A stretch of 64,000 nt of DNA from Malacoraja senta. Its lineage: Eukaryota. This document shows positions 1,615-64,000 of this stretch, piece after piece. A program made the position numbers and the translations under genes. The notes beneath the pieces are model-generated. The model was not told where the DNA came from, ran no database searches, and saw only the letters and a program-made list of their open reading frames with translations. The stretch is taken from the NCBI GenBank assembly GCA_038087875.1, contig CM075989.1, positions 19,408,001 to 19,472,000 on the forward strand, in the 5' to 3' direction. The stretch's first letter is position 1. Each line of letters begins with the position of its first letter.

Positions 1615-4600
1615 TTTTTTTTTTTGAAAATATTTTTATTGGAGATAAGTACACAACCTATTAACATCATTACAGTCTTACATTTTTGAATTGATAATAT
1701 TGTCAATTATTATTACATTGTCTCCAATACCTTTTGCCTTTTTTTGTTTTTTTTTAAACTAGATAGAACTAAAAAGATAGATAAAGTAAAGAAAGAAAAG
1801 AGAGAAGAAAAGAGAGAAAAAGAAAAAAAAAAAGAAAAAAACAAAACAAAAAACAAAAAACAAAAAACAAAACAGAAAAGAAAAAGATAGTTAAAGAAGA
1901 ATGGAAAAATTTATTAAAATAAAAAACTTCATTCGAGATATATTCGTACATTCCAGAGTATAGCATTTCATCCATTCTTTAGCTCGAGTGTTAATCAGGT
2001 TCTTGTGCCAAACCATTCTGACCCTTTAAATAATCAATAAAGGGAGACCATGTTCCAACGAATAATTCCTGTTTATCCAACAGGGAAAATCTGATTCTTT
2101 CCACGTTTAAGGTCTCCGTCATTTCTATAATCCACATTTTGATTGTGGGGGTTATAGGGCCTTTCCAAACTTTTAGAATTAATTTGTTTCCTGTTATTAT
2201 ACTATAATCAATAAAGTTTCTTTGTGTTGTTGTAAATGTTTGATTTAATTCTAATGTTCCGAGTATTATTAATTTTGGATCCGGGTCCAATTGTGTGCTA
2301 GTCACTTTAGATATTATACTAAAAATATTTACCCAGAATTTTTTAATTTTTTATACAGTTTGCAAACATATGAGATAAGGTAGCTTCTAAATGTTGACAT
2401 TTATCACATATAGGTGAGATATGTTGAAAGATTTTATGTAATTTTGTTTTTGAATAATGTAACCTATGTATTACTTTAAATTGTATTAAAGAATGTCTGG
2501 CATTTAATGAACATTGATGTATGTGTTGTAAACTTTCTTCCCAAGTATCTTTCGTTATTATTTGATTTAATTATTTTTCCCATGTTTGTCTGTGTAAGTC
2601 CGTCGATGGAATGTCACTGTCTAATAAAATATATATATAAGTTATTAATTTTTCTGTATTAGGATGTTTATTCCAACATTCGTCAAGAATGTCTGAATTT
2701 CTAATTCGAAAATTTTGAGTATTCGATTTTACATAATCTCCGAGTTGAAGATATCTGAAAAAATAATTTCCTCGGAGTCCATAAGTCTGTTGCAACTCCT
2801 GAAATGTCAGAAAAGTGCCTTCCTTGTAAAGTTGTCCCATATTTTTAATTCCATAATTCTTCCATTGTGTAAAACCCCTGTCCAACCATGAGGGCTTAAA
2901 CAAAGGGTTATTCACAATTGGAAGAAAAAGTGATAAATTATCTAATTTTAATGTCTTTTTTAATTGTTTCCAAATTCGTATAGCACTAAATATTATAGGG
3001 TTTTCCCCATACATTTTTTGTTTAATTTAGACGTAGCAAATAATATCGAGCCGATATCAAAAGGTAAACAATCTTCCTTTTCCATTTTTAACCAATCTGG
3101 TTGTTGATCTATTTCTTCCAACCAGAAATTCATATTTTTAATATTAACTGCCCAAAAATAAAACAGAAAGTTGGGTAAAACCAAGCCTCCATTTATTTTT
3201 GATTTACACAAATGTCTTTGTTTATCCTATGATTCTTATAATCCCAGATAAAATCATTAACAATGGAATCCAATTTAAAAAAAAAGTTTTTTGACAAATA
3301 TATCGGAATTGTCTGGAAAAGGTATAATATTTGCGGTAAAAAAATCATTTTTATGGCATTAATTTTGCCAACCATTGAGATAGGAAGTGTTTTCCAATAT
3401 TGAATATTCTTATGTAGTTTGTTCAGTAATGGGGGAAAATTTGCTTTAAATAATGATGTATATATCTTAGTTACGTAAATACCTAGGTATTTAAATTTTT
3501 CATTTACTATTTTAAATGGAAATTGTTGTATTATCTGTTTGTTGTGTTCCCTTATTGGCATAATTTCACTTTTATTCCAATTTATTCTGTATCCTGAGAG
3601 TGAACCAAATTGGGTTATTAGCTTTAATAAGTTTGGAATACTAATTTCTGGTTTTGTAATGTAAATTAGTACATCATCTGCGTATAGAGAAATTTTATTC
3701 ACTGTGTCCTTTGTGTTATACCCATGTATTTCCGGATGACCCCTAACTCTTTCTGCGAGTGGCTCAATAGCAAGGGCAAATAATAATGGAGATAACGGGC
3801 ATCCTTGTCTACAACCTCTAGATAGGCTGAATTTAGATGACAACCTTTGGTTTGTTAATATTCTAGCCGTAGGGTTTGTATATAACAGTTTTATCCATGT
3901 GCAGAATTTCTCCCCTAGCTGCATATTTTCCATCACCGAAAATAAATAAGACCATTCAACCTGATCAAATGCTTTTTCAGCGTCAAGTGAGATTATTGCT
4001 AGATCTTCATTAATAATTCTCTTAGAATAAATAATATTAAATAATCTTCTTAGATTATAATAGGAGTACCGTTTCTGAATAAAGCCTGTTTGGTCAGGGT
4101 GTATTAATTTATTCATCACTGTACTTAATCTATGCGCTAGTATTTTAGTTAATATTTTCTGATCTGTATTTAAAAGTGCAATTGCTCTATATGATCCCGG
4201 ATCTTCCGGATCTTTATCAACTTTAGGAATAAGTGTTATTATAGATTCATTTAAAGTATCTGGAAGTTTCTGTTGAGTATAGATATGCTCATACACCCTT
4301 TGTAAACGTGGGGAGAGCAAGTCATACATTTTTTTTATAGAATTCAGAGCCTAAACCATCTGGTCCTACTGCTTTACCATTTTTTAAAGAGCCAATAGAC
4401 TCCTCAATATCCTTTATCGTAATCTCCCTTTCTAATAATTCTCTATCGTTTGAATCTAAACCTTTTAAATTACATTTTAATAAAAAATCTGCTATTCCTT
4501 CTGGTTGTACTACAGTTTTAGTTGAATAAAGATTATGATAGTATTGGAGAAATCTTTCATTTATATCCTTGGGCATTTTTAATAATTCTCCTGTCTCTGT

Positions 4601-4823
4601 TCTAATTTTATGAATTATTTTTTCCCCTTCCATTTTTCGTAACTGACGTGCTAATAGTTTTTGTGGTTTGTCTCCAAACTCAAAATGTAATTGTTTGGTT
4701 TTTTGATAAAGTTTTATTACTTGTTCTGAATACATTGTTTAATTTATATTTCAATACAGCAATTTTATTATGTTTTAAAATAGATGGCATTCTCGCATTT
4801 TCTATATCTAGTTGCTTGATTGA
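1615..4823 (-). mobile_element. 5'-truncated L1-clade LINE (ORF2 RT and C-terminus, a few frameshifts) with polyA tail and candidate TSD
   Basis: ORF pieces 4322-4735, 3193-4329 (DPGSYRAIALLN, SLDAEKAFD, RGCRQGCPLSP, SLYADD), 2993-3211, 2571-3014 and 1991-2305. Minus-strand AATAAA near 1635-1640 and polyT at 1614-1625. Flanking direct repeat TTTTAGCTTTT(T)CT at 1601-1614 and 4824-4836. Confidence 0.93.
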
Positions 4824-18673: not shown

Positions 18674-19417
18674 TATGCGTTGGGGGACAAGACCTATCGG
18701 GTCCCACTTGGTCTAGTATGTTACTAAAACTGAGAAGTTGGTAGCTCAACTCCAATGGGTTGCTTTGTACATTTGATCATTAAACTCGCGTTGCAATCTA
18801 TGTAGATTACATCCCATGGTTAATATTATTCCAACTATGTATCCGGCAGCATCTTACAGCTTCGTTTTTTGTTAGTGCAGTTTAAAATTACGCTGCATGT
18901 TGCACGGATGGAATATATCTATGTCAAACACCACACGTTTTCAGGTTAGTATTAGTCTAATATCTAGGGAAATTCAGCGGACAAAAACTAACATCCAACC
19001 ATCTTGGTTGATAAAATTGACAAAACATTTTAAAAAGTTGAAAGTTCCCGATTGAAGAGTGGGGCCAATTGGATGATCTAATCTCACTATTTATTACCAG
19101 CATAAAGCATATTTCCGGAGAACAATTACTATTTGAAGAGAGGTCCTTGGTTTAACAGATTGATAAATACACGGTAAAATGCTGGTAAGTGCGTTAAATA
19201 AAACTTTATTAAATAATAAAGACCACGGTTAAAGAAAAAGTACCTATTACCTCTAAAGCGGGATTATCTTTCTATATTTTAACCGTAGCTTCGATGGGAT
19301 TGTTATCATTGTTTGAATAATCCTGCCCCACAGGTAAATACACTTCAGGCGACTTTTGGAAATAACCACCAGTTGATCTATCTAAGTCAAGATCGAACTG
19401 AAAGTGAGATGATAGTT

Positions 19418-19614: not shown

Positions 19615-20055
19615 GTGAGGTGATAGTTTCCGGCTTCATGTTAGGTTGCCTGCAAGGTTCTTCGCCCACTGCTGTCTATGCCCGTGCGAATGACAAATTA
19701 AACCCAATACTCACACTTCACAAATCCCAGTGCGTTAAACATTAAACAAATTTAAAAAAATTTGGAAGCGAGGTCTTCCGTGAGAAAAGACCCTTCCATC
19801 GTATATATATTTTTTAAACACACACACAAAAAAACAAATCTTACAATTCTTTTAAGTGACGAAGTGAAAGCTTCAATGAACCGTTATATATTTTTTGGCA
19901 TTTTGTTTTGTTGGGATCTGGCAGTATTTGTGACACTTGAAGTGCCTGCTGAGAGATTTCGGACGATATTAGATTCTGCACCCCACAGCAATTTTTCCAC
20001 CGCCTTTCTCGAAACACGAGAACAGAACTCTTTACCTGCAGATTGTATCAGAAAA

Positions 20056-23000
20056 CTTTGGTTGCATTAGGAACCCACTATATATACACTATTTTAGTTG
20101 TTTTTTTTAAAGATGTACAGATACATAAATTAATACAAGAATCAATCTTCACATAATACAAAAATGAATCAAAAATAAATCACAGCAATACGAACATTTT
20201 TGCAAGAAATACTTACACACATCTTAGCAGAGAATGGCTTACCCTGTGAAAAGACTATTTTTTTTAATATAACACAAAAACCTAGTATAATTTAACAGAA
20301 AGTTTAGGTTTCCTCTCAGAACCAATAACAATCAACTACCCTTTTCTACCATTCTCGTTTTCAAAATACTTCTTCCTCGACCCCATCAGAGTTCTGCCAA
20401 ATCTACAAAATAAATAATTATAAAGCTTTGAAGTGACGTTAACAATTATCAAACTATTCAGTTCTGCCTTACACGTAGACTCTCTATACAACATAACCCT
20501 AAGGATTTATTACTATGAGGTATCTTGAGAAATTGAAAAGGAATGCACGACCTGCGTTGTGTGAATACTCTAGGACGCAAAAAAGAGCTTTGGTAATCAG
20601 CAAAAAAGTGGAAATATCCTTTGGTATAAAGAAAGTTTCATTGCATGGTTGTACTGCAAAGCACTACGGTGAAAAGTTATTCCGTTTTTTTAATTCTTTA
20701 AAGTAGTGGCCTTTCTAGAGGCTGAGGTATTCGAGAGTAAGGTGAAAGAGGTCAACAGCGGTTTCACACTTTGGTTCAAGCAAGGCACTCGTCCTGTGAT
20801 TTTACAAATTTTGCAATATGTTTGCCTATAGCTTTTATGAAGAGAACTTCACACTGGGTGACAGTTGAGGGTTTAAGGATAGAACGCCGAGTAGTCCACT
20901 CACGAAGGCCGTGCAGGAAAAATCTTTGGTATTCTTTGGTATCATCGATGTGATTAAAATCACTAAATGGAAATCGAGTGAGGTAGCGTCTTTGGTTCAC
21001 ACTATAAATAGTAGATCTTTACACCTTTTTACACGTGGAAGCAGCTATTTTACTCTTGCTTCTTTGTCTTAATATTAGTAAATGATTACCAAATGTATCG
21101 TAAAGCTAACCACACCACAAGAAACACAAGGCCAGAATATTGTTAAAATTTCGGATTATCATCCACTCCATTGGCCTTCTGCGGATGAACGCACCAACTG
21201 CATGTCACCTTTGATCAATCACTAATTCATTCTCTTTGTATAAGGAGCCTCTTTTAACACATACAAATATCGGGCACGTTCCTTTCGGGGGAGGCGGGGG
21301 TGAATGGGAGGCGTGCCTGGGGAGGATATTTACAACATTCAAGTTGATAACAGCGGTTAAACAAGTCACTCAAGGGGCGTTATAAGTTACCGAAACAATA
21401 ACTGTCAGAAATATACATTTCCTATCACCATATCGTCAGGGGTGAGTAACTGACATAAATAGAAGTCAGAGAATTAACTTCAAATCAGACTAAGTTAGAA
21501 ACCCTAAATATAAACCCTGAACAGGTAATGTTCAATTTTAAAACCATCTTTTCAGCACACACTCTCTGGGAATTTATTCAGCAGTTTTAAGAGGGTAGTA
21601 CGTGTTTCATAGGAAGTAAGGTTTTTGTTGAGCTAAAATATTTTGGTGGCATTTTGCTTTCAGTGGACGAGAGGAAGGTGAATTATTTATACAACATGCA
21701 ACAGCCCACCTCTCCGGCCGTGGCCGCATTATATAATTTACTCTATATTTATATTTGTTGATGACAGAGACTCGGTAAAAAAAAAAGAAGTTACTTTAAA
21801 GCTAACTGCCCAACAAAATAAACGACTATAAAATAGTGGGTTTCGCCTGCATATTACGTTAGATTTGAGGTAAATACGTTATTTTAATTGAGTACTTTGA
21901 TTTGCAAGTAGTTTCAATTGATATTCAATCTTTGAAAATCTTGTATGCAAAATACGTGTCACTTAATTTTTTATCAGAAATTCATGAATGGGGAATGTAC
22001 GACAGTGAGATGGAGGTTTAAGTCGACATTGGCGTTTCGTTTTACCCCAGGTAAAAAAAACTACTTCACACCCTAATGTACAAGTGGTCAATCATTCAAG
22101 TCTATTCCATCTATGATTTTTAAAAACACATCCTATTATCGGCGTGTCATATTAAAGGTTCCTTGAAATTATTCACGAATTATCTTGACTCACTTGATCT
22201 GATGACATCGACATGGCGATCAGGTATCCTGAAGATGGATATTAGTACAATTGATGGGTGTAAAAAAGTGGACTCGTTTTGCATTGTAGCTCACGAACGT
22301 GCGATGTTCCTGAATAAAGAGTTATCTTTGGTTCTTTAGCAGATTATTTTTAAAGCACAAAGGGTAATATGTAAATACATCTGAGTGACTGAAATGTTGC
22401 ACTCTGTCAAGAGTAATTCATGTCTTGACTGACACCTGAAACATATCGTTCAGTAGCCCAGACTTGTACTGGGTTCGCTCTTTGTTCTGTCTCATTATGG
22501 AATATTAACCTGAATCATATAACATCTTGTATCTTGGTGTTAACAGCGCCCAACAGCAAAGTGCCTCCCTTGGCATTCGTACATCTAACGAGATGGTTTT
22601 TACTGTCAGCAATTGCTAACTACAAGTTAGGAACAACAACGTATCTGCAGTGGAGACAACAGGAACTGCAGATGCTCGAATCTTGAGCAAAACACAAAGT
22701 GCTGGAGGAACTCAGCACACCAGGCAGCACGTGTGGAGAATGTATGGGAGATGTTTCAAGTTGGGACCCTTCTTCAGACATGGCCTGTCCATTCCCTCCC
22801 CAGATGCTGTCTGACCCGCTGAGTTCCTCCAGCACTTTGTAGTTTGCTCAATACCTGCACAGTACTGCCTTCCCAGGGTTATACACTCTACCCTCCCGGG
22901 TCCATGCAGATAATTATTTGCAGATGTACTTCAAATACGGGCCAAAAGTTTAAACGAGCCTTGGAACTCGTTATGTTGACAAATAATTTACACAATTCTG

Positions 23001-24325
23001 CATACTGTATGCATAATGATGAAGGATTTGCATTTCAAATTGTTGTTAAATTTGTAGCTGATTCACTAATAGATGTAGCAAACCACATAAATTAAATTTC
23101 CCAACATATCAGGTGGGGTAACTATCTTCTAAGAATTATGTTATGATACTCATCGTGTGGGCCACGGGTTTTAGCAATAAATATTGCATGATTATAAGGG
23201 TGTTAAATAAATCTACCCTAAAGCATGTTAGGCAAGTGGCGGTAAGTTTGTGGGACGTTGTTATTTGTGTTAAAATGTTTGTGTTAAATTTAGCAAATTT
23301 GTTATTGCTGTTATTGCCAGTACACCTAATAGAAGCCTACAGCATCCGTAGCTAATTGGTTGTAACGGGACTGTTCATCCAGTGAACATATCTGACAACC
23401 CAATTGATAGCACCCTTTCTTGCCTCTGCAGCGATTTGGATAGCAAGGAACCGGGATAAAATGAATGATTCCTAATTGATTCTACCATTATTGGTTAACG
23501 TCTGTAACATATAAAGCAAATTATTATAAATAAATTGCCATATCATTAATTTGGCGTGCAAAATCTGTTTGAATAGAGATCTGAAACTGGTCGTGGTGGA
23601 TGTGGGGACTCCCAGTTCAACTAATATTTGTGCTTCTGGCGAAATCTCCCTGTCATTTATCCCGTTCTTTGTTATCCAACGTACTTTTCATCTAAAATAC
23701 TGGGTTGGGGGTGGTGTAGGATGATTTTTTTTTTTTGGTCATTAGCTGTCGCATTTCCTCTGCCTGCGATACAAAGAGAATGGAGTAGTGAGAGGGTGAC
23801 GGAACAGTTCTCGGTGCGTTGTTGAACTGTGCGCGGAATCGGAGCCCTTTGCCTTCAACCCGCAAAAGGGCTCGAGTCCAACCACATTCCAAAGGTACAC
23901 AGAACGACTCCACGAATATGTCAGGGGCCGCGCCTGAGCACAACCCGAAGACCAGCCCCATTGCAAAGTCTCTGACCACTGGCACGTACACTGGCATTTC
24001 GACAAGGTGGGATATCCGAGGAGATGAAATGAGTCATTGTTTTTGAAGTGATGTCTGATGTTCCCAACGACATTTACAGCCACGCACAATGAACGACGCT
24101 GAATGGTGAACATGTACAGCCAGCGGCCCCATTCATTTTTTTTTTGCAAAAAGTCATAATAAAGTGTTGTAGAACGGAGGCTTAATGCAGGTTAATTAAG
24201 TCTTTGGTTTCGTTGGGTATATAAATATGATACTGTCTGAGTTCATTAATTAAACCTGCTTCCTGGAGGTCCTGGTCATTTATTTTAAAGCTATTCCACC
24301 GAGGTTTAGTCCGGGGGTTTCTCCT
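20056..24325 (-). other. ONECUT1: Inferred long 3'UTR of ONECUT1 (minimum extent; true end possibly near the AATAAA at 19205-19210)
   Basis: Directly downstream of the stop codon and mostly repeat-free. Contains nine miR-9 and four let-7 seed matches in mRNA-sense orientation. Confidence 0.7.
22650..22865. mobile_element. Diverged palindromic Penelope-derived element inside the inferred 3'UTR
   Basis: ACAAAGTGCTGGAGGAACTCAGC ... GCTGAGTTCCTCCAGCACTTTGT inverted arms, with CCCTTCTTCAGAC in the centre. Confidence 0.75.
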
Positions 24326-24618
24326 TCATGCTTTGGTACAAGTGCTTGATGAGGAAGATGAGTTGACTGAGTTGGAGCTGCCGTCGTCCTGCCATTTATC
24401 CAAACTCCTCCGACGTGCGTTCATAAAGAAATTGCTGACGGTGCTCAGCTCCAACCCCAGCTGTTGGGAAATGGTGATTTGCAATTCTTTGGACGGACGC
24501 TTGTTTTCTTTGAATATTGCGTGGAGAGTTCTGCGTTGAACATCCGTGAACACCAGCCGAGGCTTCTTGGGAGCGGCGCCTCTCTCCTTCACATGCTCCT
24601 GCTCTTTTCTTTTGCACG
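24326..24618 (-). CDS. ONECUT1: One cut homeobox 1 (HNF6), terminal coding exon: linker, homeodomain and C-terminus
   Basis: Acceptor TTTGTCTTACAG (AG at 24620-24619), phase 1. Translation: (A)CKRKEQEHVKERGAAPKKPRLVFTDVQRRTLHAIFKENKRPSKELQITISQQLGLELSTVSNFFMNARRRSLDKWQDDGSSNSVNSSSSSSTCTKA*. Has the Onecut F48/M50 signature. DVQ, TLHAIF, KELQ and SLDKW match ONECUT1 rather than ONECUT2/3. Confidence 0.97.
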
Positions 24619-24712
24619 CTGTAAGACAAAGCCATAAATATTAATCGACACCCACTCACCACGCCGGAGAAAAATAGCAGGCAAGACGAGAAACGATGTA
24701 AAGACATATCAT

Positions 24713-24847
24713 GTTGCATTATATGGACCATGTCTGGAGTTGCATTATATGGACCATGTCTGGAGTTGCATTATATGGACCACTATAGAGTTGCATTATA
24801 TGGACCACGTGTAGTGCATTATATGGACCACTATAGAGTTGCATTAT
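24713..24847. repeat. Minisatellite, ~25-26 bp unit GTTGCATTATATGGACCA(TGTCTGGA/CTATAGA), about 5 copies
   Basis: Tandem copies directly visible about 95 bp into the intron. Confidence 0.92.
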
Positions 24848-24992
24848 TCAGATCACATCTAGATGTGCATATTTTGGACCAGTCTTTCTTACTTTTCAAC
24901 TAAGGTCCCAATTAGTCATTTAACGATTAGAGATTTCATTCACAAAGAACAATTTGTCCATTTCTGGCTGATTACTGGCAACAACTTAAATG

Positions 24993-25249: not shown

Positions 25250-26339
25250 ACAACTTAAATGTAATCAGTTGTGTGAGATTGATAATATTGGCCACACGGA
25301 AGGCACCGTTATAAAGGTGGTCTCAGGAACAGCGTTTAAATTATCTTAAAATATATCTGTGCCGAAATCGACATATTCAATATTCAAATCAACATACATT
25401 CAATATGGGGATGAACATTTATTTTTTGATAAACATTAAGGAGGAACAAGTGTCACATCAGGCCAACCAACTCATTCTGATCGTTAACTCTGCGGGTATT
25501 TTCTATGTTACCTTGTGCAGAACCATCTGACTCCAAGTCCGCGTCCATTTCTTCCGTTCTCTCCCTATCCAGGAACTCGCCCAACTCTCTCGAGTAAAGC
25601 TGCCAGGTTGTGGGTGCCCTGCACCTGGCCTCATTTTGTCTCCCAATCTGGCTCCCTTAATGTGTAAAAAACAAACGGACGCCGGAATTTGATTTGAGGG
25701 TGGATAGACTTAGATTTTGTTGTTGTTGCTGTCGTTGCACGGTGACACAAAGCAACTGGACAGAGGCGATGACAGTAATGCGCACACAGAATAAGATTCC
25801 TTTAGACAACGACATGAAAATTCAACTAGAGATCAATAGATGGCGCGGTAGAACAGAATTCCACTCCTGTGAATACTCTGAAAATGAACTACATATTAGA
25901 CCAATTCTAGATGGGCTTGATAAATACAGTTGCTTCCTGCGAATTGAGATGGATGCGTTAAAAAAGAGCACTAATAATCACTGACCTAAATGCAATTTTA
26001 TGTTATAGTTTCTATAAACGGTGCCATTTGGCTTCATCTTAAATCATTTTCATAAACATAATGCAGCAACAGCAATATTTTGGAAACATTCAAATCTCCC
26101 AATAATCAGTTTTCTCAGTCACACCGCGGAGGCATTTTGATGAAAACTTCCTTCGATTTCTACCTCTGTACCCCTGCATGTAGAACAAATTCTCTATCGT
26201 TTGGGATAGGTTGGGTTTTTTTTCCCCTTTAAAATCCGCATTGCTTAATTAAAAGCTTTCAGTTGTCAGCGAGTGAGACACGACTTTGAGATGTGGCTGT
26301 CCAATGAACTATGCTTCAGCAGAGGTCAACAGCCTCATC

Positions 26340-33802: not shown

Positions 33803-36800
33803 AAAAACCCATATTGTTCACGGACCATTCTTAAAATAAAGCTGCTCTGTGTATGTGTGAGTATTAATGGTCCGGAATCATTTGGTCAGTGTTTGTGTGT
33901 TTGTTGTGGCCGGGGAGGGAGGTGGTGGCTGAGAGGGGGGAAAATCCACACACATTTGAAATTTAAAAAAAGATAGAGGCCGGCATCAGCTAATCTAACA
34001 AAACGTTGAAAGGACTGTTATGGGTAAATTTGGCAGCATCTTGATCAGGCGTCTTCTCGTCCTTATTTTATGGTGCCTGTAGTGGTCAGTCTGCCTTGAT
34101 TGAAAAGGGACGTGTCAAAGGTGACGCTTCAAGACTCCAAAAGCCAACAGCTGCTGCTTCAGCAGATTAACCGGAGACTCTTTTTTTTGTACTTTCGCCT
34201 GTTGAGCTTCTTGGAACCTACTTGGCCATAAGAAAACACACATCTGTCAGTCCAGAAAACACAAGGAATACCCGTTGGATGTTAGAGGAAAAGAAAGCAT
34301 GATATTGCAAAAAGGCAAACCAAACAATGCAATTGCACCTTAACATCTGTCACGTCCACAATGACCATGCTCTAAAAATATATAAACTCTGATAAACGCA
34401 AAATGCAATTTTAGTACATTGACATTTTTCTCTCTCTATTAACGATCTCTCAATAAACAAGATTGAATAAGAACGAGGGAAGGGAAATAGGAGCAACTAA
34501 AGTTAGCAGGGAGATAATTAACAACAATGGTAAATCTATGGAAGTTTTGAAGCTGCCGTGTCACAACGTATGTCAAACGTGTGTGTGTTATTCTCTTGAA
34601 AGCACAATATTCTCTTGAAAGCACAATAAACTTATGTCCTGTTTTTTTTAAAGACTCGTCAGTCCACAAACACACAGCCCTGCTGACCGATGTAAACATA
34701 TTACATGTGGAAATATTTTGATTTCAGTTAATTGTGTAAAAACGATGCATTTTGAAATTACGCAGGGGTCTTGAAATTGGCCATTGTTACGACGTGCTGC
34801 AGAAACCCCAGAGTAGATTTGTGATCGCGTTGGAAGTGATATCTTCATAACGCAAACATTCATTGACTTTATTTAGATTTCCACAGCTCAGCCTCTAAAC
34901 TTCATTATACCGACGGCGGTGCAAGTAGTTTTAATGAACACTCGGCCACGTTCGCCTCGTAGCCAAACATAGGACGGTGCTCACTGGAAAACTGCATCTG
35001 CCCATATTCTCATACTGGTCGATATTTTCATTCACACTCACGTCTCTGCGGCTTGTAAGGGGAAAATTAGACTTTTGTTGGGACTCACTCAAGCAAATCT
35101 TATTCGTGTTACAACGCGAGTTTGTCGCATATGTTTTGTGACTGAATTAAAATGTAAAATGGTCGTGAGCTGATGACAATTCCGGGCACTGAAAACAGCG
35201 GCAGCGGCAGCAGAATAGGATTAGAACAAAAAGCACGTGGCTATTAATTTGGCGGCGATTAATTGGAATAAATACCTATGTTATTAACGTGAAATGAAAC
35301 ATAGCCGTGGGTTGAGAGACACGACGTTCTCAATTCTGTGGGAAATTTGATTTAAATCAATGACAGCATCTGCAGTTCCTTCCTACACATTTACACAAAC
35401 AGCAATTATTATACCCCTTTCTGATGTACCAGATTACGTTGTAAACATATAACAAATATCTGCCGTTTTAATATGGTCAAAATTGAAATGCGCTTTTTTG
35501 CTGGAACTTTCAAAATATTTTGTATTTAATTTTAAATTGCGATGTTATTCTATATTTAATCAATTTCGTAAAACTGAGCTGTAAAGGTTGATATGAGATT
35601 TATTAAATTTCGGAATTAAAATTTATTTTAGATTCTGTTTTTCACAAATAGCAAGTGCTTTCCCTTCATTTCCGTGTTGTTCTATTTCACGAAAAAAAAC
35701 CCATATAAAAACCTGTTGACAAAAATCATGGTCAGAATGACGGAGTGGAATTGACATGTTTTAATTACCCCGAGAGACGGGATGGCGTTGGCGATACGAT
35801 AGTGAGGGAGCAATAGGAGTGAACACACACTTTAGTGTATTATTGCCACAGTTTGCTCACTGAGTTATGAAACGTTCTACTATTGTACCAACAATAAAGG
35901 AGATATATTACAAAACAAACAGAGGGCAGCACGAAAATGCATTGTTCGCATTCCACTTGTAAGTATTACATAATAAGTATTAGCACCTAAGTATTAGCAG
36001 AATACATGCTGCAATACATAAGTGTTAGAAGAATACATGGTGCAATTGTCCAGGTAACTTAGTTATTCACGGCCCAGTAATGGTTCCCAAACAGCATTAA
36101 TGCAGGCTTCATCTCCACAGAAGTTATAGCGCGTACATTATCTTCCCTTGTTTCGCATTTTATGAACTATTTGCTAAGCAAGCGGGTTGTTCCCATTAAA
36201 TATTTACACCCTAATGTCTCTTCGTGTTTCAAATTATTAATTAGGCGCCTTTGGTCATTTTAAGTTGAAATTGAGAGTCTGCGAGGTTTTAAATATGATT
36301 TCAAATTATTAAAGCCTTCTATAATGCGAAAATTACCCCATGTCTTGCATGTCAGAGATTAACAGCTTCGAGGATCAATAATGTGAAATTCGCCAACTGA
36401 AAGCCTACAAATGACAGCGTTATTGATAGCAGGCATGCAAATTATTTCATACTGTAAAAATATATAAGAATGTAAAGCCACAATCAACCGGATTAAAACT
36501 GGCAAATGGCCGTCTCTCTGCAGCAGTAACGCTGAAAGTTGTTAGAATAACGACTAATTCAACGAGAATTGCAAGTGAAAACTCTCTGCATAGAAATCTA
36601 AGCAAAACCTTTGCAAAATGGCTCCATTCCCTTTGTAATTTTAAAACTTATTTTAACATCAACCTAAAATTGTTATTTCGGTTGTGGTTCACCTAAACAA
36701 TCAGACGTATATTCGTTTTACTTTACTAAAATACATATCTGACATTAATCCAAGATTAGCCACAAAAAGGGAGTAATAATCTAATATTATTCTTTCCTGG

Positions 36801-37444
36801 TCTTTTCACATTATACAGTTAAACCAAACCTTATTGCCTGCAGAATATGTCGACACTTACCATCTTATTAAAAGTCATCAGTAAAGTTTATTTTCAAACA
36901 ACATTTTGTAATCCACATTTTATATCGCCTTTCACTTTGTGCCGTTAAAGTCATCTCGCTTTTGTTCATTTTTTTGTTTTGGAAATAAATTGTCGATAAC
37001 ACACTTTATAGATTCGGCAAACATCATCATCCTTTTTTTTAAACAGAAAAAACGAAGATCAATTACGCTCATTGTATTTGGCGAATATTTATTTGTAAAT
37101 AATACAGCGACCGGTAATATTCACGTTGAACCAAAGACTGTTTTCTAAAATTACATGGTGGTGATCTTCAAAATCGAAAACTATTTTCAATTCAATGCAA
37201 CTTTTGTGATTGTGTTGTGTTTGCCTCTAAGTTTTAACGTTTAAATTGTGAAACGACGGCGCTCAATTTTTCGAAAGAAGCACCAATGTATGGAAAAGGG
37301 TAAATGTAGGGAGCGAAGTTGCAAATAATTTCACCTCAGTCGTTCCAAAATATTTCGGCAGGATCTTTAATCCATTGTGGTGAAATTGCAAGAAGTATTT
37401 TACGGGGCGGATTTTAAACGAAAGAGGCAATGGAAAGGTGTTTA

Positions 37445-37565
37445 AGAAAGAACTGCAGATGCTGGAAAAATCGAAGGTAGACAAAAATGCTGGAGAAACT
37501 CAGCGGGTGAGGCAGCATCTATGGAGCGAAGAAATAGGTGACGTTTCGGGTCGAGACCCTTCTTC
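37445..37565 (-). mobile_element. Penelope-derived arm with 11-bp TSD (duplicate at 59751-59871)
   Basis: AAAGGTGTTTA at 37434-37444 and 37566-37576. The element is truncated inside the CTGAAGA box. Confidence 0.85.
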
Positions 37566-38584
37566 AAAGGTGTTTATCATTTTCAGAAAACTAATTGATT
37601 TAATCTAAAAACAAGACAATCAGTTAAGCAGCGCGATGTTCAAATCTACTTGGGTTATTAAAGTGTGGAATTTACATTTTAAAACAATCTCAAAAATTCG
37701 TCTTCCCCCTTATTTTGATATTCCGCAGTAAAACTGAGCTGGAGAATATAAATTACTGTTGTTGAATGTATGTGATACGCCAACGTTGGCTGAATGAGTC
37801 AAACTTTGTGAGAACAAAACGGTTATTCTGTTTCACCGTGTTTGATGTATAGGTCCACATACACGGAGATTATCCCGTGTTTAATGTAATGTCTTTTAAA
37901 TGACCTTCCTCCCTTAGCAATGGATGAATTCGGGGCTGGCTGCGTGCTGATATAGGTGGGAAATGTGTTACTGGATAACTAGTTTACTTTACTTGGAAAA
38001 ATGCAAATAAATAAATACTTGGCTATCAACTGCCAAAGCGTTTTACGGAATGCGAGAAATTCCTTGGCTGGGATAGTAATTGTTGAAGGTTTAAAAGGTT
38101 GCAATTTTGTTGTTGTTGCAGAATTTGAAAGGAAACGATAAATGTAATAGTGACGGGGAAAGTATTTAAATAATCGTGAAAAGAAAAATTATATTTAAAC
38201 GTCCAAGTAACCATGAATCCAAGCAGGAAGGGCTGAGAGGGATTTGCGTCAAAGGCAGGCAAATTGGACCACTTCAGCAATAAATGCTGGTCCGCATGCA
38301 CAAATTGGGCCGAAGGGCCTGTTTCCCGCGCTGTATGACTCCATGACTGATATGGAACTGTACACGTCTGTTTCCCTTTACTACTGCACTTTCAATGCTC
38401 TTGCTCAGGAGAAAACATCGAGGAAAATGTTACACGATACAAGACCAGCACCTGCTAATTCTTGTACAAAACCTCCAAATATCAAATGCCCATCCGAGAT
38501 GGGACGGGGAATGATTCATCCCTCAGTATTCAAGTTTCTGTAATAAATTTATGTTGAGCAAATCCATTTCTGGAAGTGGCGGAT

Positions 38585-38790
38585 AAACTCAGCGGGTCGG
38601 GCAGCATCTATGGAGCGTCTGAAGATGGGTTTCAGCCCGAAACGTTGCCTATTTCCTTCGCTCCATAGATGCTGCTGCACCCGCTGAGTTTCTCCAGCTT
38701 TTTTGTGTACCTTCGATTTTCCAGCATCTGCAGTTCCTTCTATAACACAGCATCTATGGAGCGAATGGGCAGGCTGGGTGGGACCCTTCT
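38585..38790. mobile_element. Palindromic/rearranged Penelope-derived element with + strand hammerhead motif (duplicate at ~60891-61096)
   Basis: GTCTGAAGATGGGTTTCAGCCCGAAACGTTGCC. Confidence 0.8.
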
Positions 38791-40828
38791 TCCGACTCAG
38801 TACATTTCAAAGGGATTGGGGTTGTGTGTCCTTTCACCCGATGGACTTTATCAACAGCCCGGTTGTCGACCCGAGCACAATGTAACAGATCACACCTCCA
38901 TAAATAGCAGTTGAATCATTTAAGGCCGCATAAAACCCCCCAATACTTCTAAAAGAAGCGATCAAAAATGTAATGCAAAATAAGTACTAATTCACCATTC
39001 CAAAACTACGGTCCAAGTAGTCTATAAAAGGGGCAGGTCTACTAGCTGGACGTGAAATCGAGAGGAAATTTGCCTTGAAAACTTTTCTACCCGGTAACTC
39101 TCCAGATGTGACATTTTGTTTCCTATTGTTGAGATCCAGAATGAAATACAAATTCTACAGTTTTATAGTAGTTCTCAGAACAGACCCGGCTAATTAATTC
39201 GGGGCCGCGTTGGCGTTGATCGAGGATCTGCGTTAGTTTACAAACACGGTTGTAAGGCAACAGCACGAACAAGTCCTCATCTTAAATGGCAGCACGAACA
39301 AAACGGAAACAGCCATGCTGTAATATCCAACACAAGGACTCATCTACACTCGCAGTTAAGCAATTGTCAATGTTTAAGATGCACAAAGCGGACATGACAA
39401 CGAGATAGGGACCCGAGCATTGTTCAATTAAATAAACCCAGAAAAGAATCGTTTAACTTGAAACATCGGACATAATAATACAGATTCATGAATGGCGAGT
39501 GGGTTGAAAAGCATGGGGCGAGAGTGTGCCATTATTGGTTGCCGCGCTGTTCCCCCAATTAGCCCAGCTACCCCACACTCCTCCCATTAAAACACAAAGG
39601 TCGGTAAGTCAATGAGCATTTTCCCGTGGCAATTAGAGGGCCGACTACTGACAACAGCGGCAACTGAAGGGTTACTTTTTGGAGAGCGTTAACTGGTATC
39701 CAATTCAGAAGCAAGGAGCACATGGTTCTTCCGTAAACCAAGCCGTCATAAGTTTATGTTAAATTGTACGTTTCACAAGAAGACGATTGTGTTCATTCCA
39801 CCTGCCTTGTTGCAAACATAAACACAACATGGCTGTTACTGCGGTCGGCCTGTTGGTTAGTTATTATTGCACTACTTTATCAAGGCTGTGAAACTCCGTG
39901 CGCGCTTAAAACAGGATAGCATTTCAAAGAACCTCAATCAATTTGCAATTATCAACGCGAGCCTCTTTGCGGGTGTACCACACCGATGTAGTGAAGAATG
40001 TGCTGCGAGAACAAAATCGAAAACACGACTCCTCAATCAATAAATGGGACTGAGCAGTTCAGCGTCTCACGCTGTTGCTCAAAGCCATTCAATTATATTT
40101 TAAATGGTTTATTCACCACTAACTTACTGGGTATTCATTTTATCTATTTGTGGAGTGTAATTTGTATCGTAATAAACCATATTTCCATTAAAGTGGCTTC
40201 GTTATCATTGTTTGTTTTTAAAATATCACATATCCTCTCATTTGTTGCTTGGCTACTTCATCGTTGAGTAAGTACCTCTCTCTCAACTAATGCAAGGATC
40301 TCCCATTTCACCCGCACCAGCTAAAGGGGAGAGGTCTACCTTATGGGCCGTCACCACCCTTGTCAACTTGGGTACAGAACTCGGAATAACACCATCAACT
40401 ACTGCACAACTAGCAATCAGAAGAGTAAAGTGATCATTTTGCAACTTGATCTGAAGCATGCATTTGAATCGAGACGAGTTGTATATTCAGTCGGCGCTAC
40501 ATTTTGTACAGGAAAAACCAGTTGTGAATAAAATCGTACGCCTATCACACCCACTAGTCACATTAATTAAGCAATTGTGAAATTTGGAATCATCGAAACT
40601 TGCCATCGCCGATACTGTTATCTTTAACATTGCAATATCGAACAGGGGCCTGCTTCGCATTTTAACCCACAATTTTTACTCAATAACTATACTATATATA
40701 CACCGATACTATAAAAGAAAGCGAATATAACACACTCTAAAGAGGAATACAGCAACATGTCTGAGACACATGCCTGAAAAACAGTTGAACATTGCAGATT
40801 ACAAAATGTTTAGTTCATAAACGATTAC

Positions 40829-40939
<111 letters not shown>

Positions 40940-41494
40940 CGCCAGCGTTCAATACCAAACTTAACACAGTTAATGACTAAAACACATCATCACCGCTTCT
41001 TGGATAAGGAACAAATAGGTTATCATAAGAACCTACTTCTAAAGCAACATCGAAACGCTCGTTTAAAACGCGAGTTCACCATTCAGATCATGTGCTGAGT
41101 GCACTTCGTGTAACCCCAAAAGGTTGTTGACGAAATCTTTATGTACTCTGTTTCAATAACAAATATATCTTAAAAATGAAGAAAAAAATGAATATAAACT
41201 ACGTTTATATTTCCTGCTTTATATATAACTGCTGAACCACTGCAAAACATACTTTGAAATGATAACATGGCAGATCCACACTGGGATACCTATTGCATCT
41301 GATTGTGGGTTGACTCGCACGCTTTTACAACCCTATATTTTAATATCCACCAGCTAAGAAACGGGGGCATACAGCAACCCAGCGCTTTGCAAACCGTGCA
41401 TGCAATTTTAGGATATGGCATGAGTGTGTGAAGTTATCGCTCTGTGCGTTCCATACGCCTTAATAACAGTGTTTTGCAGCAGATACGCGTACAT

Positions 41495-41650
41495 AATAGA
41501 CACAAAAAGCTGGAGTAACAGCGGGTCTGAAGAAGGGTCTCGACCAGAAACGTCACCCATTCCTTCTCTCCAGAGATGCTGCCTGACCCGCTGTTACTCC
41601 AGCTTTTTGTGTCTATCTTCGGTTTAAACCAGCATCTGCAGTCCCTTCCG
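41495..41650. mobile_element. Palindromic Penelope-derived element with + strand hammerhead motif (duplicate at ~63812-63970)
   Basis: GGGTCTGAAGAAGGGTCTCGACCAGAAACGTCACCC, flanked by the direct repeat ACATAAT. Confidence 0.82.
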
Positions 41651-42399
41651 ACATAATTGAACACAATAGTCTCTGTCTGGCTTGTTCAAATTTACACGAG
41701 GAAATCCTTCAGTTGGTTTTCTCATCTTGGTTCAAAGAAACATACCTCAAAATGTGTACATTAAAATATATATATATATACTATTAAACCGTTAACACAT
41801 GATTGAGGTATATTCGCTTTAATTAAATTATTGTAATGAAACGATCAGGAAATGAACGAGACATTACGGGCGCTGTACGTTATGTAGGGCAGTCAAATCG
41901 TCACACGCATCTTTCATCTACTACTTTGTCATTTGTATGCGGGGCATATCTGAAGTAGATATGAAATATTATAAGCTGCCATCTGGCACGTCACTTCCTG
42001 TTTTTAAACCATTCAAAAAAGTTTGCAAGTTTGCCTGTTTCTGTACTTCTTGGAAGCTGGGAGCAGAGTTCATGAATTATATCTCCTGATATCATGTCAA
42101 GCGGGATCATATTGCTTAATCCTTCGTGTACTGGCGCCGCCATCAACCGGCCACTTCTCCACTAATTCTGCTTCCCTCAGTTATAAAACCCCCTTCCCCA
42201 GTTCATACTTTATCTCTGGCTCATACACAAATAGGGTTTAAGATTTTAGTTGGCAGCTTGCATTAAAATAATTCCAATCGTCGCCCCTCCCCCCCCCCTT
42301 GCTATCATCGTTGCTTTACAATTCCATCCTTACTCAGACCATATCAAAACATGTTCTCAGCTTCTCTTCTTTCTCTCCCCCTCCCCACCTCTCTCCCAC

Positions 42400-58653: not shown

Positions 58654-64000
<5,347 letters not shown>

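Follow-up and report, generated by a model that had tools for sequence, protein, structure and literature searches.

The ONECUT1 locus

The subject of this analysis is a window of 64,000 nucleotides from the cartilaginous fish Malacoraja senta (GenBank assembly GCA_038087875.1, contig CM075989.1, forward-strand positions 19,408,001 to 19,472,000), in which the minus strand carries the last coding exon of ONECUT1/HNF6 and, behind it, an array of matches to the microRNA miR-9 in a putative long 3' untranslated region (UTR). The exon (24326..24618) encodes the linker, the homeodomain and the C-terminal tail, as judged from its translation, homology and acceptor context, and ends with the stop codon TGA at 24328-24326 on the minus strand. 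Its product is 97-98% identical to the HNF6 of five sharks and rays and 96% identical to that of chimaera; identity to amniote HNF6 is 93-94%, against 79-81% to ONECUT2. Judged by sequence, the gene is the ONECUT1/HNF6 orthologue, since the homeodomain exon is nearest to HNF6 rather than to ONECUT2 or ONECUT3 and the UTR is homologous to that of an amniote-type ONECUT1 locus (L001, below).

The exon encoding the CUT domain does not lie within the 64-kb window. At 24618 the last exon begins with CGT, as does the exon 3 described for skate, and the same study reports a 48-residue "spacer" exon in skate and ray Onecut1 (PMC12324554). Only one 144-nt candidate that begins with GGA, is bounded by AG/GT and keeps the frame exists on the upstream side of the last exon, at 25512-25655 on the minus strand. 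It fits the spacer exon of skate and ray in size and frame (PMC12324554), a likeness known here by structure and not by sequence identity; spacer peptides of other vertebrates gave no match to the intron. A short tandem array with a unit of about 25 nt (24690-24880) adjoins the acceptor of the last exon on its upstream side.

A cluster of miR-9-5p seed matches

An initial annotation of this DNA had listed ten positions of the plus-strand word CTTTGGT, read in the mRNA sense as ACCAAAG, and had attributed them to miR-9-5p. The word stands at all ten, and ACCAAAG on the minus strand is indeed complementary to nt 2-8 of miR-9-5p, the seed being taken from the partly available PMC6341724 (Table 1). 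Nine of the sites lie 3' of the stop codon, at distances of 118, 1994, 3330, 3386, 3396, 3551, 3701, 3732 and 4264 nt behind it. The tenth (24331..24337) falls within the last codons and has the same DNA letters in both vertebrate-type loci used for comparison, L001 and L002; we presume it to be weak, as it sits in coding sequence. All nine UTR sites are of the 7mer-m8 class and five of them are followed by A, making 8mers (20924, 20934, 20990, 22326 and 24202, the same five as annotated; the region holds no others). Six sites are packed into 409 bp (20588-20996), where those at 20924 and 20934 are 10 nt apart, as had been reported.

Between 20056 and 24325 there are thus nine 7mers where dinucleotide shuffling predicts 0.49, and five 8mers where it predicts 0.14; no shuffle in 2000 reached nine or five. 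The initial estimate of about 0.3 chance occurrences was therefore slightly too low for the 7mer, while the excess that it described is real. Under Markov models of orders 1-3, no 7-mer of the region ranks above ACCAAAG (P 2e-9 to 3e-8), and as this P survives correction for 16384 words, the enrichment is not an artefact of choosing the word afterwards. It is also the densest 7-mer, low-complexity words apart, in any 4.3 kb of the window. CTTTGGT occurs 21 times on the two strands of the window; ten occurrences are the named positions, and the six minus-strand and five plus-strand matches elsewhere amount to background. The array can accordingly be called exceptionally dense for this DNA, but not as a novelty, human ONECUT2 being richer according to the available part of PMC10356556.

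Could such a cluster arise by chance, or by the spread of a repeat? The region was picked after the motif had been seen, which speaks for chance; set against this are a P of ~1e-9 and first rank among all 7-mers. As for a repeat origin, none of the repeat families contains the sites of the array, and a SINE-like interspersed repeat within the UTR (22649..22851, strand unassigned) carries none. We regard an origin by chance or from a repeat as having a negligible probability; the independent conservation of the array in L001 rules it out.

Conservation in other vertebrates

Loci for comparison were drawn from metagenome contigs, for which 29 aligned Onecut homeodomain proteins served as the query, and 80 of 166 confirmed loci were retained; a Onecut search of prokaryote and viral contigs gave no match. 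L001 is an amniote-type ONECUT1 locus with 5.9 kb 3' of its last exon, whose product is identical to HNF6 entries from turtle, bird and mammal. L002, a second vertebrate-type locus, has just 763 nt 3' of its stop. Among the human ONECUT1 UTR cloning primers in the supplement of PMC10914762, the forward one matches L001 at the start of the UTR (3/500 shuffles as good) and the reverse one does not match L001 (337/500 shuffles as good); against the window, neither did better than chance (86/100 and 95/100 shuffles as good).

The 3' stretch of L001 contains ten sense copies of ACCAAAG, seven of them 8mers, and none in antisense, where 0.58 would be expected. Its homology to the window falls into collinear blocks at 24316-24164, 21123-20906 (80% identity), 20689-20403 (78%), 20254-20040 and 19768-19663 (74%), on a background in which 352/4580 7-mers (7.7%) are identical. 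The annotators had proposed such an alignment with the distal UTR of another vertebrate ONECUT1, and in it seven of the eight aligned sites are identical (P 2e-5 using local background rates). The exception, at 20056, is only a 6mer in L001. The site at 20769..20775 and a let-7 match at 20723..20729 (7mer-A1), both recognised as seed matches, lie outside the alignment, and L001 has one of each, in equal order, between the corresponding blocks. Two sense 8mers of L001 have no counterpart in the window, which is gain and loss of one word.

The individual blocks are informative. The first includes the proximal 8mer (24201..24208, minus strand, like all the elements listed here), conserved in L001 and L002, and the proximal miR-9-3p 7mer-m8 (24286..24292), likewise retained in both. 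The 8mer at 22325..22332, whose pairing continues in register to nt 13-16 of the microRNA, is an island of conservation: it is identical in L001, which has its best match at the collinear place, while only 1% of the neighbouring 7-mers are conserved. The 80% block (20906..21123) holds a miR-9-3p site (21101-21107), a miR-9-5p 8mer (20989-20996), a let-7 8mer (20979-20986) and the miR-9-5p 8mer doublet (20933-20940 and 20923-20930). The 78% block (20403..20689) holds two miR-9-5p 7mer-m8 sites (20619-20625 and 20588-20594), a let-7 7mer-A1 (20516-20522), an AATAAA (20506-20511) and a miR-9-3p site (20421-20427). A weaker stretch (20040..20254) includes a miR-10 site (20241-20247), a TGTATATA element (20081-20088), which we take to be of the Pumilio type, and the miR-9-5p 7mer at 20056-20062. 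The most distal homologous block (19663..19768; E 3e-12) is located 4.56-4.66 kb behind the stop.

Some 100 nt that include the doublet and the miR-9/let-7 pair (21000-20900) hardly differ between the window and L001, beyond the needs of the seeds, and additional protein sites or structure are likely there.

Functional selection on the sites is supported by this comparison. Considering that cartilaginous and bony vertebrates separated ~450 million years ago (PMC8728216, available part), the dating of the array to the jawed-vertebrate ancestor holds as a minimum age, with the distal array resting on the single locus L001.

Companion motifs and the orientation of the sites

An unbiased ranking of words brought up two further microRNA matches that the initial annotation had not mentioned: TACCTCA (let-7 7mer-A1) and AGCTTTA (miR-9-3p 7mer-m8), each present four times. 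By count alone the excess is suggestive, with P 3e-5 for let-7 and P 3e-3 for miR-9-3p; the let-7 enrichment is equalled by the unrelated word TTAGGGT, and it is conservation alone that separates the two. Three of the four aligned miR-9-3p sites and two of the three aligned let-7 sites are identical in L001, compared with 1/4 and 1/3 for equally enriched control words. Moreover, among words enriched in both the window and L001, those of let-7 and miR-9-3p rank next after the miR-9-5p words, and in both sequences a let-7 8mer stands 2 nt behind the miR-9 site at 20990. Single matches to miR-124 and miR-10 are not significant by count (P 0.22 and 0.08). In late retinal progenitors let-7 and miR-9 rise together, and to judge from the conserved matches let-7 and miR-9-3p probably act on the miR-9-5p cluster.

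The extent of the conservation raises another possibility, namely a DNA enhancer downstream, made up of these blocks, in which the motif would be a transcription-factor site, CTTTG being the Wnt/TCF core. Seeds alone would not require conserved stretches of 200-300 bp at ~80% identity, the locus has few repeats and is rich in CpG, and PMC10735318 (available part) gives CTTTG as a Wnt response element. Orientation argues otherwise. CTTTGG is oriented 9:1 in the window and 14:0 in L001, whereas the TCF-like CTTTGWW flips from 8:1 in the window to 4:9 in L001. The A that follows the seed match (5 of 9 window sites, 7 of 10 in L001) and the sense-only let-7, miR-9-3p and AATAAA motifs also indicate RNA. 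We consider an enhancer in place of a UTR very improbable, though enhancer and UTR functions could possibly overlap.

Polyadenylation signals and the length of the UTR

On the minus strand AATAAA occurs at 24284, 21578, 20511, 19210 and 19095, implying tails of ~66 nt (without a miR-9-5p site), 2.8 kb (two sites), 3.8 kb (eight) and 5.1-5.3 kb (nine). The proximal signal (24279..24284) has an aligned AATAAA in L001. So has the one at 20506-20511, which lies in a highly conserved block and has GU-rich sequence 3' of it. Just one site, the one at 20056 that is not conserved as a 7mer, is located further 3', and the conserved signal thus suggests a 3.8-kb end that would omit this site. However, conservation goes on 3' of this signal, with sense miR-9-3p, miR-10 and TGTATATA motifs and homology as far as 19663, at 4.66 kb behind the stop; this suggests that there is a longer mRNA form as well. 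Candidate ends of the longest form are the signals at 19205-19210 and 19090-19095 (19090..19210, minus strand), beyond the end of L001. The initial proposal that the UTR extends at least 4.3 kb is thus supported indirectly by the homology to L001 and qualified by the conserved 3.8-kb signal; a UTR of at least 4.3 kb appears likely for some transcripts. The choice of signal may also set the sensitivity to miR-9, the ~66-nt tail having no site, the ~3.8-kb tail eight and a tail of 4.7-5.2 kb nine, an idea to which we give slightly less than even credence.

A proposed mechanism and what weighs against it

Nine sites where 0.49 are expected, their sense-only occurrence in the window UTR and L001, and the conservation of seven in eight lead us to read the stretch, with considerable confidence, as a long ONECUT1 3' UTR under selection as a multi-site miR-9 target. 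In the long mRNA form, Argonaute-loaded miR-9-5p would bind up to eight or nine seed sites, aided by the let-7 and miR-9-3p sites in a shared 700-nt cluster, and the outcome would be a lowering of ONECUT1 mRNA and protein. A presumed rise of miR-9 in neural and retinal progenitors would shut ONECUT1 off and end the period in which early-born cell types arise, as has been reported for mouse.

The initial annotation had called this repression cooperative. The start-to-start intervals of the nine UTR sites are 1876, 1336, 56, 10, 155, 150, 31 and 532 nt, and cooperative microRNA site pairs are reported to lie 8-40 nt apart (PMC8255926, available part). Only one of the eight miR-9/miR-9 intervals (20619/20588, a 24-nt gap) qualifies, along with two miR-9/let-7 neighbours at ~38-39 nt; the other miR-9 gaps run from 48 to 1870 nt, and two pairs at a 2-nt gap, the doublet among them, are closer than the range. 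Most sites would consequently add independently, and many independent sites would give a strong, dose-sensitive repression, with true cooperativity plausible for a few close pairs only.

Alternatively, one of the sites might trigger the target-directed degradation of miR-9 itself. The site at 22326, which pairs nt 1-9 and 13-16, comes closest to this. The predicted duplex energies, -11.6 to -16.6 kcal/mol, nevertheless do not stand out from a null distribution in which the seed is given random flanks (mean -13.7, standard deviation 2.7; a perfect duplex gives -36.7). No pairing run exceeds 4 nt in the 3' half of the microRNA, so that the extensive 3'-half pairing of a degradation trigger is absent. 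This explanation is hardly credible.

Several points count against repression of a long ONECUT1 UTR by miR-9. The accessibility of the sites is not significantly above that of controls matched for composition (median 0.24 vs 0.18, P 0.67), and their 3' pairing is no more than that of random flanks. The blocks around five of the conserved sites retain 19-51% of all their 7-mers, so that the constraint covers more than seeds. The deep conservation seen here comes from one amniote-type locus, together with a second locus that covers just the proximal sites; the placement of the sites in the mature mRNA would follow from conservation and poly(A) signals, and the proximal AATAAA (24279-24284) has no counterpart in L002. 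From the literature, in its available parts, mouse Onecut1 is said to be without miR-9 sites and was unrepressed in Neuro-2a cells (PMC10914762), and the full-length ONECUT2 UTR was resistant to miR-9 (PMC10356556).

Invertebrate onecut tails

The other 79 loci allow a look beyond the vertebrates. With the vertebrate-like L002 and L012 and nine loci with less than 300 nt behind the stop set aside, 68 remain, and the result depends on how they are de-duplicated. Loose clustering (37 clusters), which merged several site-rich entries under a site-free one, gives five 8mers where 1.3 would be expected (P 0.011; rank near 600 among 6401 8-mers) and eight 7mers against 4.3 (P 0.07). Strict de-duplication (52 loci) gives ten 8mers against 2.0 (P 5e-5), with three in antisense against 2.0; the miR-9 8mer then ranks first among 168 words of equal composition, yet it occurs in only 5/52 loci. 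All five are arthropod-type, and two of them have a homologous stretch with a common site. This is a lead and not proof, and could point to either a bilaterian origin or convergence.

Two other sense words stand out in the invertebrate tails (L003-L080), and their signals exceed that of miR-9: TCTAGTC, with 18 occurrences against 3.8 (11/52 loci; antisense 1), and ACATTCC, with 27 against 7.0 (21/52 loci; antisense 7). We take these to be the seed matches of miR-279 and miR-1, respectively.

These strands might be joined in a single history. A miR-9 brake would predate the vertebrates, with bilaterian 8mers; the doublet would have been inherited by ONECUT1 and ONECUT2 through genome duplications; and the proximal AATAAA would yield a miR-9-proof mRNA in liver and some cell lines, the distal ones a form silenced by both miR-9 arms and let-7 in neural progenitors. 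As a whole this scheme is rather doubtful, but if true it would explain the report of mouse Onecut1 escaping miR-9.

The surrounding window

The region 20001-48000 has a CpG observed/expected ratio of 0.67-0.89, compared with 0.24-0.56 on either side, and few repeats occur in 20-44 kb, a profile resembling that of a developmental gene's low-methylation domain. There is a GC-rich island near 42-44 kb. A 5.3-kb stretch is present twice (58654-64000 and 36348-41681) at 99.6% identity, starting at a gap of 200 N, and is probably an assembly duplication of two haplotypes. At 1991-4738 on the minus strand lies the remnant of a broken reverse-transcriptase open reading frame, presumably LINE-type, and many SINE-like inverted pairs are scattered across the window. 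Rfam gave no RNA family match in positions 1-20500 or 21000-64000 (63.5 kb).

Comparison with known miR-9 targets

That Onecut factors are miR-9 targets, as the initial annotation stated, is borne out by the available parts of two reports. The human ONECUT1, ONECUT2 and ONECUT3 UTRs are all repressed by miR-9 in reporter assays and are all top TargetScan predictions (PMC10914762), and Onecut1 and Onecut2 rise in the retina of miR-9-2 knockout mice (PMC13060328). The miR-9-Onecut pair is already known; what is new here is its age, the mixed cluster of miR-9-5p, miR-9-3p and let-7 sites, and a possible poly(A) switch. Repression of mammalian ONECUT1 by miR-9 was reportedly described by Luxenhofer et al. 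in 2014, as cited in PMC7719755 and PMC10356556, and that paper or Madelaine et al. (2017) may already contain alignments of these sites. Our literature search, whose coverage stopped short of most subscription papers and of TargetScan, found no prior report on the cartilaginous fish array or on ONECUT1 poly(A) forms, and the main text of a study of skate Onecut1 in retinal development does not mention the UTR (PMC12324554).

For the paralogue ONECUT2, whose human mRNA has a 14.6-kb 3' UTR with 13 conserved and 13 other miR-9 sites, a role as a sponge has been proposed, in which the UTR binds miR-9 mainly as a competing RNA and is not itself silenced (PMC10356556, available part). The number and conservation of the sites fit this idea as well as they fit repression, and the ONECUT2 mRNA is resilient to miR-9 despite its 26 sites (PMC10356556). 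On the other hand, miR-9 lowered both mRNA and protein of human ONECUT1 (PMC10914762), and Onecut1 is up in the knockout retina (PMC13060328), again as far as the available texts go. A transcription-factor mRNA would also be far scarcer than miR-9, reaching at most 46 transcripts per million in skate retina (PMC12324554). A sponge is in our opinion very unlikely for ONECUT1.

The array itself is real and conserved, and on the sequence evidence it is almost surely functional. The gain lies in dating and anatomy: an array kept for ~450 million years (PMC8728216) marks the sites to mutate, and the skates already in use for Onecut1 retinal work (PMC12324554) make testing feasible. The array also bears on a conflict in print, between a mouse Onecut1 without sites (PMC10914762) and its de-repression in the knockout retina (PMC13060328), both taken from the available texts; the claimed lack of sites is hard to square with so deep a conservation, unless that work relied on a short form of the UTR. 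The natural doublet offers material for the question of how close two Argonaute complexes can sit.

The closest known system, within the parts of these reports available, is mammalian ONECUT1 and miR-9, with the same gene, the same microRNA and several 3' UTR 8mers described as vertebrate-conserved. What those reports describe comes from human, mouse and other bony vertebrates, whereas the present array is from a cartilaginous fish; here, in addition, the distance to the stop is 3.3-3.7 kb for most sites, and let-7 and miR-9-3p sites are interspersed among them. ONECUT2 likewise has a long UTR packed with miR-9 sites, but a longer and site-richer one. Among its eight conserved 8mers, sites 7 and 8 are two nt apart and are the strongest ONECUT2 sites in photoactivatable ribonucleoside-enhanced crosslinking and immunoprecipitation (PMC10914762, available part). 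The 20924/20934 doublet, with its 2-nt gap, has the geometry of this pair, a likeness of spacing and not of aligned sequence.

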